Assembly (NCBI GenBank): GCA_048268755.1
Contig: JBLWUU010000002.1
Location: 241,268-305,267, forward strand
Direction: 5' to 3'
Origin: Pseudidiomarina sp.
Lineage (GTDB): Bacteria > Pseudomonadota > Gammaproteobacteria > Enterobacterales > Alteromonadaceae
DNA length: 64,000 bases
Position numbers and translations under genes: made by a program. Each line of letters begins with the position of its first letter. The first letter of the stretch is position 1. This document shows, piece by piece, positions 6,794-20,557 of the stretch. The notes beneath the pieces are model-generated. The model ran no database searches, was not told where the DNA came from, and saw only the letters and a list, made by a program, of their open reading frames with translations.

Positions 6794-7588
6794 ATGACAA
6801 TAACTCCTTCAATACTCATTTCAGGTGCAGCGGCTGGTATTGGTGAAGCGACGGCGCTGAAGTTCTTGGCGGAAGGTTGGCGTGTGGGTGCTTATGACAT
6901 TGATGGCAAAGGCCTGACTGCACTTTCTCGTGAGGTAGCGGAAAGCCAACGTGCCCAGTTAGTCACTGGCTGCTTGGATGTCACCGACAATGACAGTTGG
7001 CAACAGGCACTGGAGGACTTTACCTCACACACGGGCGGCAGTTTGAACCTGTTATTCAACAATGCGGGCATTTTATGCTCGGGGCCGTTTGCTGATACCT
7101 CACTTGAACAGCAGCAACGTTTGATTGCGGTGAATGTGCAGGGTTTGCTGGCGGGCTGTTACTTAGCTTTGCCCTACTTACAAAATGCCGCCACCAGTGA
7201 CAACGGTGCGCGAGTGATCAACATGAGTTCAGCAAGTGCCCTCTATGGCCAGCCGGCGTTGGCGGTCTATTCCGCCAGTAAATTTGCCGTGCGCGGTATC
7301 ACTGAAGCATTGGACTTGGAGTGGGCTGCGCATGGTGTGAAAGTCATGGACGTGATGCCGTTATTCGTGCGCACGCAAATGGTCACCGACATGAATGCCG
7401 GTAGCATCAAGCGGCTGGGTGTGCGCTTAACACCGGAAGATATTGCCGCGACCGTATTTAAGATGGCGCACTATCGCGGCAGCCGTGTGCATTGCCCTGT
7501 CGGTCTGCAAACCAAGCTCATGATGGGCGCCAGCAAGCTCTCACCGAACTGGCTGACGCGCCTGACCAATCGCTGGATTACGCGTTAG
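6794..7588 (+). CDS. Short-chain dehydrogenase/reductase
   Basis: SGAAAGIG, NNAG, YSASK motifs. Confidence 0.9.
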   Translation: MTITPSILISGAAAGIGEATALKFLAEGWRVGAYDIDGKGLTALSREVAESQRAQLVTGCLDVTDNDSWQQALEDFTSHTGGSLNLLFNNAGILCSGPFADTSLEQQQRLIAVNVQGLLAGCYLALPYLQNAATSDNGARVINMSSASALYGQPALAVYSASKFAVRGITEALDLEWAAHGVKVMDVMPLFVRTQMVTDMNAGSIKRLGVRLTPEDIAATVFKMAHYRGSRVHCPVGLQTKLMMGASKLSPNWLTRLTNRWITR

Positions 7589-13333: not shown

Positions 13334-14461
13334 ATGGATATTATCACTATTATCGTTCTCACGGGCCTGACCAATCTGACTTTTGCTTTATATAGTTGGC
13401 ATCAAGTCAGCAATCCTGAGTCGCACTTTGCATGCCGAGCATTTGCCTTAGCGCAGTTTATCAAGGCAGTTTCGTTTGTTCTTTACGCCATCTCGCTCTA
13501 TCACGGCTACGACCACTTACGTTTAATCGCGAATTTGCTTATTTTTATTGGCTGTTGGGCCGAGGTACGTTCTTACAATCAATTGGCGTCAGCGGGCATT
13601 AAATCTAGCTTTTTGTGGGCTGGAACTTTGGTGACATGTATGGTGTTTAGCTGGTTTCATTTCACCAGCGGTGATGGCCCCAACAACACCATGATTGTCA
13701 CTGCCTCGGTATTGCTGGTATTGCCGTTTGGGTCTAGCGCCTTTGCCCTTTACCAGCTTCTCAAACAGCATCCTGCTAGCGTATTCCCGCGAGTGTTATT
13801 TATCGTAAACGCCATGATCGGGCTATTTTGCTTTATCCGCGCTCCGCTCGCTGCCAGTGACTCAGCCTTCACCATGACCGGCTCCGTGGTGGTTAATGAG
13901 CTCTTTATTTTCGCCACTTTTTTACTTGGCCTTGGTAATGGAATTGGTTTCATCGGCTTTTTAAAGGAACGCTCCGATGAGCGTCTGAGCGTCCGTGCCA
14001 ACGTTGACTACTTAACCGGTATTTGCAACCGCCACTATTTTGAAAGTGTGGCCAAGGCCCACTTGCAAGCAGACGAAGATTTCACCCTCTACTTTCTCGA
14101 CATCGATAAATTTAAAGCTGTTAACGACAACTTTGGCCACGCCACTGGCGACGAAGTACTGCGTCTTTTTGGCAAGCTGCTTCGTAAACAACAAGAGCGC
14201 CACGACGGCGTTGTGGGTCGACTTGGAGGCGAAGAGTTTGGCATCATACTCAGGGGCAGCGCCAAAGCAAACCACGCCCCCATCATCCACAGATTACGCC
14301 AAGACTTCGCCATGCTAACAAAGAATAAACTTGGCTATCCTATGAGTTTCAGTTTGGGTTCTTGTGCAGCAAAGCAAGTTAACTCAGTCAGCGAGCTCAT
14401 GCGTAACGCAGACGTCTTATTGTACGACGCCAAGCGTCGTGTGCCGGAGAGTTCCAACTAG
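13334..14461 (+). CDS. Membrane-bound diguanylate cyclase
   Basis: Several N-terminal TM helices; DYLTG, DIDKFKAVNDNFGHATGD, RLGGEEF. Confidence 0.88.
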   Translation: MDIITIIVLTGLTNLTFALYSWHQVSNPESHFACRAFALAQFIKAVSFVLYAISLYHGYDHLRLIANLLIFIGCWAEVRSYNQLASAGIKSSFLWAGTLVTCMVFSWFHFTSGDGPNNTMIVTASVLLVLPFGSSAFALYQLLKQHPASVFPRVLFIVNAMIGLFCFIRAPLAASDSAFTMTGSVVVNELFIFATFLLGLGNGIGFIGFLKERSDERLSVRANVDYLTGICNRHYFESVAKAHLQADEDFTLYFLDIDKFKAVNDNFGHATGDEVLRLFGKLLRKQQERHDGVVGRLGGEEFGIILRGSAKANHAPIIHRLRQDFAMLTKNKLGYPMSFSLGSCAAKQVNSVSELMRNADVLLYDAKRRVPESSN

Positions 14462-15276
14462 ACCGTAAACTGCGGCATTGTAGTGTCCATTTGCTGAAGA
14501 TCATTAAAAGCAAAGAGCGGAAGATCATACAAGTCGGCGAAAACGTCGTAAATTTGCGCGGATGCCCGCATTACGTTTTTTAAATCAGGGTAAGCCGGCG
14601 ACATACGCATGTCATTGAGAGCTTTAACCGCAACTTTCACGCGCTCGTCAGGAACACAACACATGTGCCCCGGTATCGTTGGATAAATGCCTTGGCAGCG
14701 AAACTCGCGCAAAATTAATGGGATCTTGATTAAGATTTTTCTGCCGTTGGTGCCCAAACCTTCAATGTTGCGAAGCATTTGAGCGAAGGGCATAAAATCA
14801 TTTTGTCTGGCGCAATCGCTTAATGACTTTTCCAGTCTTTGCCAGTTCTGCGCAAGTAGCGAAATACTGGCATAGATATCATCACGAAACGCAATTTGTT
14901 TACGGCTTTCTGCATTGCAAATAGCATTCGAGACTGCAATCGCATCAGCCGCACGGTTTGCACGCTGAGTAGCTACAAAGCCTGAATCCAACCACATCTT
15001 CGGCTCATCTAGCCCACGCGTCCTTAGATGCGCAACAAAAAATGCCGAGTTCTCCCACGGACCCGAGCGCGACCACACCACGGCCAGCACATACAGTAAA
15101 AAACGATCACTTTCGTTGGCCAAATCAAGACTAAAAGTATCTTTCGCACCTTGCAGCTTAAAACCAAAGTTTGAGACCCAACCGGCATAAGTGCCATCGT
15201 CTTTAAGGGTGACATAAGGCAAAGAGTGCTTCGTCTGATGAAATGCTTCCATCAGCTCACCTACGGTGTTTATCAT
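14458..15276 (-). CDS. Hypothetical protein with HhH DNA-glycosylase-like motifs
   Basis: LRNIEGLG...KIPLILRE, VPDERV and YDLPLF segments; family assignment is inference. Confidence 0.6.
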   Translation of the reverse strand: MINTVGELMEAFHQTKHSLPYVTLKDDGTYAGWVSNFGFKLQGAKDTFSLDLANESDRFLLYVLAVVWSRSGPWENSAFFVAHLRTRGLDEPKMWLDSGFVATQRANRAADAIAVSNAICNAESRKQIAFRDDIYASISLLAQNWQRLEKSLSDCARQNDFMPFAQMLRNIEGLGTNGRKILIKIPLILREFRCQGIYPTIPGHMCCVPDERVKVAVKALNDMRMSPAYPDLKNVMRASAQIYDVFADLYDLPLFAFNDLQQMDTTMPQFTV

Positions 15277-15296
15277 CTAGTATTCGCTCCGCATTT

Positions 15297-15506
15297 TTAT
15301 TGTTTTTTAGCATCAGATAACAAGAATAGGGTTTGATCGCCATACCCCATCCATGACCCTGTACTCGCAGAAATAGTCTTATCGCTCTTCGGATCATACC
15401 AGCCAAGCAAGCGCGTGGGGTTTAAAGAGTAAACCTGTTTTACACCATTTGAAACCAAATTAAGCATGCCAATGGCAATGCCGTTTTTGTTGCGAATGTA
15501 TTGCAT
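15297..15506 (-). CDS. Small hypothetical beta-hairpin-repeat protein
   Basis: 69 aa, AGGGGG upstream, IRNKNG..IG / LLGWYDP / GSWMGYG pattern; 20 bp upstream of the next gene. Confidence 0.65.
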   Translation of the reverse strand: MQYIRNKNGIAIGMLNLVSNGVKQVYSLNPTRLLGWYDPKSDKTISASTGSWMGYGDQTLFLLSDAKKQ

Positions 15507-15590
15507 TGTGACCCCCTAATCATGAAGAGGTGGTCAGACTATCGCACTCGTGCGACAAATTATGTCGAGCGGAGGAAAACAGGAGGTGAA

Positions 15591-15609
15591 CCCGCAGTAG
15601 AACTGCGGG
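15591..15609 (-). terminator. GC-rich hairpin, possible terminator
   Basis: CCCGCAGT-AGA-ACTGCGGG perfect 8-bp stem; only a pyrimidine-rich, not clean U, tail on the minus strand. Confidence 0.45.
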
Positions 15610-15620
15610 CTACGTGGTGT

Positions 15621-15641
15621 TTATTCGATGTTTTGGATCTG
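15621..15641 (-). repeat. Second copy of the yicC 3' end (att-like)
   Basis: Minus strand CAGATCCAAAACATCGAATAA = QIQNIE-stop, versus CAAATTCAGAATATCGAGTGA at 16283-16303; all six differences are synonymous. Confidence 0.75.
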
Positions 15642-15653
15642 AATATAGAAAGG

Positions 15654-16049
15654 TTAATCTGAATTGCTTGAGTAACAATCGTAGAGTATGTCAGCAAACT
15701 GCTTTTCATCAATGGCGCCAAGCACCAAATCAACCATCGCATCAGCTAGTTGTTCGCGCTCAATCACGAGTTCATAGTCATTCAGCGCTAAATATTCGAG
15801 CGCAACCATTAAACCCGTGCGCTTGTTAGCATCCGACAAAGCATGCGCTTGTGCGATGACCAAAGCATATTTTGCTGCAATTTCAAACACGTCATCTAAG
15901 CCTTCATAGCTTATTGCGTTATCAATTCTAGCTAGGGCGCCCTCGAGTTTACCTTTATCTGGAGCGCCCTTATTACCTGGCTCGGTCGCTAAAATAAAGG
16001 CATTAATTTCAATGACCCGAGATGACGGGAAATGAATAAGTTGCATCAC
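15654..16049 (-). CDS. doc: Doc (death-on-curing) / Fic-family toxin
   Basis: HALSDANKRTG, similar to the P1 Doc motif HIFNDANKRT; start GTG 16049 or ATG 16046. Confidence 0.88.
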   Translation of the reverse strand: MMQLIHFPSSRVIEINAFILATEPGNKGAPDKGKLEGALARIDNAISYEGLDDVFEIAAKYALVIAQAHALSDANKRTGLMVALEYLALNDYELVIEREQLADAMVDLVLGAIDEKQFADILYDCYSSNSD

Positions 16050-16219
16050 ATGGACGCCAAACGTTTAAAGGTCTTGTTGTGCTGTGCGAGGATGATTCGA
16101 GCTTCAGCATAAACCAAACGTTTGCCTTCCGGCGAATCCAGATTGAGTTGTTTAACCGGTTTAATCTTCGGCCGACGAACTGGTTTATTTACGCCATACT
16201 TTGCGAGTTTATTTTCCAT
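16046..16219 (-). CDS. Putative antitoxin of Doc (57 aa, not in ORF track)
   Basis: Manual translation MENKLAKYGVNKPVRRPKIKPVKQLNLDSPEGKRLVYAEARIILAQHNKTFKRLASM; GGAAGG RBS; TGA stop overlaps doc start. Confidence 0.8.
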   Translation of the reverse strand: MENKLAKYGVNKPVRRPKIKPVKQLNLDSPEGKRLVYAEARIILAQHNKTFKRLASM

Positions 16220-16282
16220 TTTAACCTTCCGATCCTAAGCAAAATCGAACTGAATAAATCATAGTAGAACACAACAGATATA

Positions 16283-17146
16283 TCACTCGATATTCTGAAT
16301 TTGCTCGCGCATCTGCTCAATCAACACCTTCAATTCCACCGCAGCGTTGGTAATGTCCGTGTTGATGGACTTCGAACCAAGGGTGTTCGCTTCACGGTTG
16401 AATTCTTGCATCATGAAGTCGAGGCGACGGCCGCAGGCGCCGCCTTTGCGCAAAATTTTGCGGGTTTCGACGACGTGGGTGTCGAGGCGGTCGAGTTCTT
16501 CGGCGACGTCGGTTTTCTGCGCCAGCATGACCATTTCTGATTCGAGGCGTTGTGGATCGAGTTCGACTTTTGCATCGGCAAGACGGGTAAGTAAGCGCTC
16601 ACGTTGCCACTCCAAAACTTCTGGCATGCGTTTGCGTACTACGGACACTTGCTCTGAGACACCCTCTAAGCGCTCTTCAATTAAACGCTCTAGGGCTTTA
16701 CCTTCGCTTTGACGGTTGCCAATGAACTCAGCGACGGCAGCGTCAAAGGCGGCAACCACGTCATTTTGCATGGCGTCCATGTCGGCTTCGTCTTGCGCCA
16801 CCACGCCCGGCCAACGTAGCACATCAATTGGGTTCAATTGCGCAGAAGCACTTTGGTTCGCAATCCAGTTCGCGCTTGAAATGACGCTTTTCGCCAACTC
16901 TTCGTTCAACTGTAATGCACCTTCGGCTTGCTCGTTGAAGCTTACACGAAGATTGGACTCGACTTTGCCGCGCTGCAGTTGCTTGCGTAATTTTTCGCGC
17001 AGCATGTTTTCCATGCCACGGAATTGCTCAGGCATACGGAAGTAGGTCTCCAAAAAGCGCTGGTTTACCGAACGAAGTTCCCACGTCACGGTGCCCCAAT
17101 CAGCTTTGTGTTCGTGGCGGGCATAACCGGTCATACTTTGAATCAT
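16283..17146 (-). CDS. yicC: YicC/YloC-family endoribonuclease
   Basis: MIQSMTGYAR, GRRLDFMMQEFNREANTLGSKS, REQIQNIE; divergent from rph. Confidence 0.95.
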   Translation of the reverse strand: MIQSMTGYARHEHKADWGTVTWELRSVNQRFLETYFRMPEQFRGMENMLREKLRKQLQRGKVESNLRVSFNEQAEGALQLNEELAKSVISSANWIANQSASAQLNPIDVLRWPGVVAQDEADMDAMQNDVVAAFDAAVAEFIGNRQSEGKALERLIEERLEGVSEQVSVVRKRMPEVLEWQRERLLTRLADAKVELDPQRLESEMVMLAQKTDVAEELDRLDTHVVETRKILRKGGACGRRLDFMMQEFNREANTLGSKSINTDITNAAVELKVLIEQMREQIQNIE

Positions 17147-20411: not shown

Positions 20412-20557
20412 GTACTTACTCCTCATTGACGTGCGTCTTCGCAATATGTTTTGCCCTAGCTTGCGCACAGTGTAACACCTTTTTTTGCCTATCCGAGGTG
20501 CTATACTGCAAGCCTAACTTGGTAATAACCATTTCGACCTTGGTTGGGGCGCAGAAG

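Follow-up and report, generated by a model that had tools for sequence, protein, structure and literature searches.

Why should the end of yicC be present twice in a bacterial genome, on the same strand and a few hundred base pairs apart, with nothing but a toxin–antitoxin (TA) operon in between? The locus lies in a 64,000-nt stretch of a Pseudidiomarina sp. genome (GenBank assembly GCA_048268755.1, contig JBLWUU010000002.1, positions 241,268 to 305,267; hereafter the window), an assembly with a completeness of 98.6%. The answer that the analyses below most probably support is that the second yicC end marks the far boundary of a 662-bp insert: an integrase-less, att-bounded remnant of a yicC-specific genomic island, resembling a cis-mobilizable element (CIME), in which a TA operon is the only content.

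The yicC gene (16283–17146, minus strand, as are all parts of the insert) encodes 287 aa, matches PF03755 and PF08340 and is 72–89% identical to the yicC of genus relatives. Its last 21 nt, CAAATTCAGAATATCGAGTGA (16283–16303), follow a GAG codon and read CAA ATT CAG AAT ATC GAG TGA; the downstream copy, CAGATCCAAAACATCGAATAA (15621–15641), reads CAG ATC CAA AAC ATC GAA TAA. Both spell QIQNIE-stop: 15 of the 21 bases are identical and all six differences are either synonymous or exchange one stop for another. The starts of the two 21-mers lie 662 bp apart, and their homology ends exactly at the Gln codon, with GCGCGAG directly before the first and CTATATT directly before the second. A first-pass annotation, made from the letters of the window alone, had described the duplicate, its limit at the Gln codon and an interval holding only an antitoxin gene and doc. 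All of this reads as described: the only open reading frames (ORFs) between the 21-mers are one of 57 aa and one encoding a Doc-family protein.

In the direction of yicC transcription the insert (15642–16303) begins with the upstream 21-mer, here called the attL core, which is borne by the insert and supplies the last 21 nt of the present yicC in place of the original 3′-end. It continues with a 63-nt arm (16220–16282) that probably holds the TA promoter and operator, the 57-aa antitoxin candidate (16046–16219), whose stop overlaps the ATG of the next gene (ATGTGATG), and the doc toxin gene (15654–16046; 130 aa from the ATG). It finishes with a 12-nt distal end, CCTTTCTATATT (15642–15653), that terminates in ATATT, as do the distal ends of integrase-bearing islands. 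Beyond it are the now non-coding downstream 21-mer (the attR core), 7 nt and then, native and outside the insert, a hairpin resembling a repetitive extragenic palindromic (REP) sequence, GTAGCCCGCAGTTCTACTGCGGGT (15590–15613, minus strand). A promoter and terminator scan of the insert gave one sigma-70-like match (GTGATA, 17-nt spacer, TATGAT; 16286–16258), which was not above shuffles. The insert also contains a 13-nt inverted pair (AAGGTTAA at 15645–15657 and TTAACCTT at 16221–16233; 11 of 13 positions complementary) that encloses precisely the TA operon, reaching from its ribosome-binding site to slightly beyond the end of doc. Like the att-like ATTCAG motifs, the pair does not stand out from the noise expected over such a length and was rejected as a signal.

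Relatives with an empty site reveal which of the two copies is native. In G048, one of a set of 39 Idiomarina genomes that includes the genome of the window, yicC ends GCGCGAG CAGATCCAAAACATCGAATAA, followed by 8 nt and the same REP hairpin. This end is identical to the downstream copy of the window at 21 of 21 positions, and an alignment of the two genomes skips the insert and resumes exactly at the downstream copy: the window is the G048 site plus 662 bp. The arrangement in G011, also empty, is the same, with 20/21 identity to the attR core, and homology with these relatives continues from the attR core into the native REP. Both genomes hold a single copy of the 21-mer. The CAAATT form found at the present yicC end occurs at the yicC end of no other genome of the genus, except in the attL of the island of G013. 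Given the match of G048 and G011 to the downstream copy, and the restriction of CAAATT to that attL, the native end is the downstream copy, now displaced (attR), and the insert brought the present yicC end (attL). CAAATT is a natural yicC allele in other genera, which fits a foreign origin of the present end. One bearer of that allele, G240, has an identical 21-mer and was considered as a source; however, its downstream DNA is unrelated and the arm is not common to the two, and the match was put down to a coincidence of codon choice.

The duplication is not due to chance. A degenerate pattern for the QIQNIE-stop core, CARATHCARAAYATHGARTRR (576 realisations; by arithmetic, ~7e-4 chance matches expected per genome), was scanned against the genus set and against 401 genomes of the order, with the reversed pattern as control. 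Within the genus it occurs once per genome at the yicC end, with a second copy on the same strand in 12 of the 39 genomes; G012, in which yicC ends with the Val variant QIQNVE, adds one more island. Across the order 215 of the 401 genomes match, and 32 of these 215 carry two copies on the same strand. The reversed control gave 0 in both sets. Eleven genus islands were mapped in detail: nine with the exact pattern, that of G012 and that of the window (the second copies in G014 and G044 lie on a different contig and fell outside the mapping). Core pairs in the genus are 0.66–18 kb apart, the ten mapped islands other than that of the window spanning 9.5–18 kb.

In all mapped genus islands the CAG/CAA Gln codon is the exact point from which the two copies are homologous, and the distal ends directly before CAG read ...ATATT (G008, G051, G041 and the window), ...CCATT or ...AAG. 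The junctions fall on the 21-mers in every island examined, and more than 40 islands, unrelated in cargo, have these 21-bp boundaries. Mobilizable genomic islands (MGIs) and SGI1-like elements are known from the yicC 3′-end (PMC8409611, PMC5704250), and yicC-specific islands have been described with 21-bp att sites as boundaries and with a TA pair at the opposite end from the integrase and excisionase (PMC8978831). The cores found here agree with the published ones in length. The proposal of the first-pass annotation that an island integrated at the yicC 3′-end, with its junctions on the 21-mers, is thus borne out by the displaced native end, the single-copy empty sites and the recurrent boundaries.

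The order set also contains very small att-bounded units at the yicC end, none with an integrase. The smallest (G260, 842 bp) encodes a 221-aa protein, and its repeat extends upstream into ATGCGYGAG; the units of 1448 bp (G280) and 2436 bp (G338), from two different families, encode homologous SEC-C-motif proteins, and that of 1808 bp (G225) holds two genes without known function. The 47 nt that follow the first att core of the G338 unit and those that follow the attR of the G009 island have 87% identity (L092 401–468, L095 148–215), which hints that G009 may carry a further decayed unit downstream, left by an earlier accretion; a search over 6 kb revealed no third core.

A dedicated integrase serves this site. 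The islands of G008 and G009 carry, right after yicC, a 413-aa integrase (Arm-DNA-bind_3, Phage_int_M and PF00589 Phage_integrase) followed by an AlpA-family protein. More than 20 genomes, from many genera, have homologues of 34–52% identity ~200 nt past the end of yicC, and because of this shared position we recognize them as a yicC-specific clade of P4-type integrases. A blastp search of the G008 integrase against the ORFs of the 11 mapped genus islands found it in G008 and G009 only. No homologue of the clade is present in the genome of the window (tblastn with two integrases, E<=0.01), and the 662-bp insert contains neither an integrase nor a recombination directionality factor (RDF). Of the 32 genomes of the order in which the core is duplicated, 12 lack any integrase homologue, genome-wide, at E<=1e-30.

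The insert itself has a second occurrence. The 641 bp of insert DNA matched, among the 39 genus genomes, only the window's own; the exact antitoxin protein was found in ten contigs (nine among the matches listed), from marine metagenomes and one 104-kb assembly. Doc and YicC, sought in the same manner, gave no exact protein match. The marine-metagenome contigs (L102–L104, L106–L108) and the 104-kb contig (L112) represent a sister lineage that is 87–89% identical overall (~12% diverged). In each of these contigs that covers both cores the spacing is exactly 662 bp, the attL core is identical and the arm matches at 62 of 63 positions, against ~88% identity in the flanks. From left to right the identities between window and sister lineage are 87.8% for the 3′-part of yicC, 100% for the attL core, 98.4% for the 63-nt arm, 96.6% for the antitoxin gene, 88.0% for doc, 95.2% for the attR core and 85.7% for a 272-aa ORF further downstream. 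Because doc has diverged in step with the flanking yicC, the unit appears to be older than the split of the two lineages. The left-hand part (attL core, arm and antitoxin, 258 nt) is 97% identical between the window and L103, and flanks and doc ~88%; such an excess could reflect either strong constraint on the TA operator and promoter or recent exchange.

Contig L112 captures a further event at the same place. Its att sites lie at 419 (attL, after yicC), 1081 and 20414. At 1081, after the TA operon, ...TTATTCAATATT is joined to CAGATCCAAAATATAGAATGA; this is followed by ~190 nt, a 400-aa integrase (41% identical to that of G008), AlpA and DUF5906 and, further into the island, by DUF499, DUF3780, DUF1156 and a PLD-SNF2 block. 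At 20414 ...ATCCACATCACCCATT is joined to CAGATCCAAAACATCGAGTAA, after which come the REP and a GGDEF gene. In the metagenomic contigs of the lineage this site is unoccupied (attR CAGATCCAAAACATCGAGTAA). The attR of the TA unit has thus taken in, at its exact position, an integrase island of 19.3 kb, giving the order yicC–attL–TA–attI–island–attR; in the sister lineage, at least, the displaced native end remains a usable landing site. Compared with the unoccupied attR of L103, the attI of L112 is changed at positions 12, 15, 18 and 20 and nowhere else, which places the crossover within positions 1–11. The cargo at 6857–20292 of L112 (DUF499, DUF3780, DUF1156 and PLD/SNF2-helicase genes, then DuOB, DUF488 and mSLOG/DUF4326 genes) looks like a stack of defence systems.

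Relatives give a direct view of islands that decay by losing the integrase module. The G023 island, with a type III restriction-modification system as cargo, shares 1.1 kb with the L112 island at 93% identity. This stretch starts within a DUF5906 gene that is truncated; the two islands also have the distal 118 bp in common, but in G023 the segment from int to alpA is missing. G017 has the same left arm as G013, whose cargo comprises type I restriction-modification, RhuM-Fic and an AAA_15 and DUF4435 pair, and retains only fragments of hsdS and rhuM and no distal copy. A third sign of decay is that the distal arm of L112 is also carried by G013 and G018. A comparison of G013 (L033) with G017 (L034) shows, in addition, a patch the size of the core: at 2344–2364 in the oriented sequences the cores differ at 5 of 21 positions, whereas identity is 98–100% after the yicC stop and ~95% before it, a pattern that suggests exchanges localized to the core.

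The Doc protein of the insert is assigned by PF02661 (E=1e-8) and TIGR01550 (64 bits against a cut-off of 38.65). Its translated Fic motif, HALSDANKR, has L in place of F relative to the Doc-type HxFx(D/E)(A/G)NKR. The 57-aa antitoxin candidate matches no Pfam or NCBIfam model, including those for Phd/YefM; its counterpart precedes the doc homologue in 29 of 38 loci. Between the window and the sister lineage the antitoxin gene differs by six synonymous and no nonsynonymous changes, and doc by 34 synonymously and seven nonsynonymously altered codons; on these counts both genes are under purifying selection and thus maintained.

Rheinheimera, Aliidiomarina, Acinetobacter, Moraxella and Vibrio have Doc homologues of 65–85% identity, in most cases preceded by the same gene. 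In Rheinheimera riviphila the TA pair (Doc 85% identical) lies 470 bp from the attR of a 7.4-kb yicC island that also lacks an integrase (attL CAAATACAGAACGTCGAATGA, attR CAGATCCAGAATATTGAATAG), and in a metagenome-assembled Rheinheimera genome it lies 1.5 kb past yicC. Direct repeats of ~30 bp (CAATATGGTTACCGARTCT...) flank the antitoxin–doc pair in R. riviphila (L053 5721–5753 and 6519–6551), whereas L055 has one copy, ahead of the pair, and the window none. A homologue in Vibrio metschnikovii (68% identical; L068 3331–4219) sits between two attC-like repeats of an eight-copy cassette array, and its gene is probably an integron cassette.

These observations are best accommodated by the following history. 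An island would have entered the last 21 bp of yicC by site-specific recombination, catalysed by a tyrosine recombinase, its own synonymous yicC end completing the gene as attL and the native end being pushed downstream as a non-coding attR in front of the REP. Everything between the cores except the Doc-type TA operon would then have been lost. Deletion of that operon would have been selected against, since loss of the antitoxin gene frees a stable toxin, and the TA pair may for this reason account for the survival of the unit. With no recombinase of its own, and none of the clade in the genome, the unit would now be fixed in place. The divergent attL core would hinder excision, and its mismatch with attR may also explain why the incoming island of the sister lineage chose attR.

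Several points weigh against this history. Neither the 39 genus genomes nor the contigs matched by the antitoxin include a larger island with this 63-nt arm that could be the ancestor, and that the unit was once larger is therefore something we infer. The first-pass annotation had suggested an island reduced to its addiction module, and the decay of integrase modules in G023 and G017 lends this some backing. The packing is tight, the TA operon being separated from the cores by 63 nt upstream and 12 nt downstream, and two random deletions are not expected to stop so near both cores. Recombination normally leaves identity in the crossover zone; attL and attR differ at positions 3, 6 and 9, inside the 11-nt zone that L112 defines. 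The islands of G013 and R. riviphila, which have no integrase, share with the window an attL that starts with CAAATW. Finally, the contrast between the 97–100% identity of attL core, arm and antitoxin and the 88% of the flanks could reflect a later exchange and not simple vertical descent.

The mismatched attL permits a different emphasis, in which a persistent TA unit guards the yicC hotspot. The attL (CAAATTC...) would no longer match the crossover zone of incoming islands (CAGATCC...), and islands would for this reason land in, and leave from, the non-coding attR as a decoy; the TA operon would stay locked beside yicC and the gene would stay intact. About a third to half of the att-bounded yicC islands lack an integrase, and some contain one or two genes, so that the site might perhaps serve as a cassette-like exchange point at which integrases act in trans. 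We regard this as possible but unlikely.

A related alternative, which we think improbable, is that the unit was never larger and that att–TA–att is a minimal cassette, moved by an integrase in trans or, after accretion with a full island, in cis. In its favour are the tight packing and the distal end TATATT, which agrees with integrase islands as far as the core itself. Other units with one or two genes exist at the site (0.84, 1.45, 1.8 and 2.4 kb in G260, G280, G225 and G338), the same SEC-C gene being present in different families (G280 and G338); an integrase island did accrete in L112; and the same Doc family probably occurs as an integron cassette in V. metschnikovii. However, integrases of this clade carry an arm-binding domain, and in so small a unit any arm sites would have to overlap coding sequence. 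It is found only in two related lineages at a syntenic place, as vertical descent would have it; the mismatches at positions 3, 6 and 9 should hinder attL x attR excision; and the Rheinheimera homologues lie inside larger islands with different arms. The proposal of the first-pass annotation that TA modules travel as minimal att-bounded units with an integrase in trans thus gains some backing from the island in the attR of the TA unit of L112, but decay of an island is the reading that we favour.

That the polarity is the reverse, with the present yicC end native and the downstream copy imported by a crossover at the right edge of the 21-mer, is already disfavoured by the empty-site comparison and very improbable. 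In the abstract, the similar short ends before all distal copies (ATT or AAG) could be assigned to either partner; yet the downstream copy and what follows align with the empty-site relatives from the first base of the 21-mer, CAAATT recurs in the genus only as the G013 island attL and is native in none of its other genomes, and in L112 bases 12–21 of the left-hand copy derive from the incoming island. An origin through transposition or illegitimate recombination, without site specificity, in which a target-site duplication or a local tandem one arose and its copies then diverged, is equally improbable and already disfavoured. It would explain a short direct repeat around the insert, as in transposon insertions, but fresh copies would be identical where 6 of 21 bases differ, and, the downstream copy still being the genus consensus, every change would have had to hit the coding one. 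The insert shows no transposase and no significant terminal inverted repeats, and neither the recurrence of the 21-bp boundaries in more than 40 islands with unrelated cargo nor a dedicated integrase clade would be expected.

As the probable remnant of a decayed island, the unit is closest to the CIMEs, first described in streptococci; the concept, and accretion at attR to give a tandem of CIME and element, are set out in PMC5704250. Like a CIME it is bounded by the attL and attR of a site-specific element and lacks integrase, excisionase and transfer genes. It differs in its host, a gammaproteobacterium, and its site, yicC; in its size, 662 bp being far below the described examples; and in having a TA operon as sole content. 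In L112 an incoming element has accreted at one att site of the unit; the mismatched attL core argues against cis-mobilization. CIMEs derive by decay from an integrative and conjugative or mobilizable element; decay is seen in the relatives G023 and G017, and no larger precursor of the window unit was found among the genomes and contigs searched.

With the islands known from yicC (MGIVflInd1 and other MGIs, GISpuPO1, GISspANA3 and GI21 of Shewanella, and SGI1-like elements; PMC8978831, PMC8409611) the unit shares the 3′-end target, the 21-bp att sites and an integration that keeps the yicC reading frame. TA modules are common passengers of these islands, for example hipAB in GI21 and two TA pairs in MGIVchUSA1. 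Full-size islands have the integrase and RDF adjoining yicC, as in G008, G009 and L112, while both are missing from the window unit and its genome, and 662 bp leave no space for an oriT mimicking that of SXT/R391, for an IncC-dependent mobilization module or for SetCD/AcaCD-responsive promoters; the Idiomarina islands, for their part, mostly carry restriction-modification and other defence genes. The module resembles Phd-Doc in its Doc-family toxin with an intact Fic motif, its small upstream gene overlapping the toxin start, its place in mobile DNA and, judging from the substitutions, purifying selection on both genes. Unlike Phd-Doc, its 57-aa partner matches no Phd/YefM, Pfam or NCBIfam model, and in contrast to the cassettes by which such modules stabilize superintegrons and islands it is bounded by island att cores and not by attC sites.

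The unit would represent a clean natural end-point of island decay: an addiction module and two att cores are left, and these 662 bp have been kept across a species-level split. It supports the view of TA modules as the most deletion-resistant part of mobile islands, and L112 illustrates that a displaced, non-coding copy of a gene end can stay a working landing site for new defence islands. For island finders that depend on integrases the locus is a warning, as most of the Idiomarina islands mapped here and ~12 of 32 across the order are without one. Current concepts are left unchanged: no new mechanism is implied, and a known kind of integrase-less island is documented in a new host group.

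The surroundings of the unit also bear on the hairpin beyond attR. The first-pass annotation had noted a GC hairpin after the downstream copy and none after the present yicC. The hairpin is present, at 15590–15613, but it is not a private terminator of yicC: it belongs to a REP-like family (palindrome GTAGCCCGYAGTTCTACTRCGGGK) with 24 copies in the genome of the window at up to 5 mismatches, and it follows yicC, at variable distance, in G011, G048, G023, G013, G017 and G007, the empty-site relatives included. Its copy number and native position rule it out as evidence of a terminator that yicC has lost.

In G048 and G011 a second, inverted REP copy, identical to that of the window at 25 of 25 positions, lies just before the GGDEF gene, and the two inverted REPs bracket a variable segment of 1.35 kb. 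The corresponding place in the window, between the REP and the GGDEF gene, is occupied at 14458–15506 by ORFs of 69 aa and 272 aa with no Pfam or NCBIfam match. These are 95% and 86% identical at the nucleotide level in the sister lineage, and other DNA is found there in G011, G048 and L112: the segment is a second variable slot adjoining the yicC hotspot.

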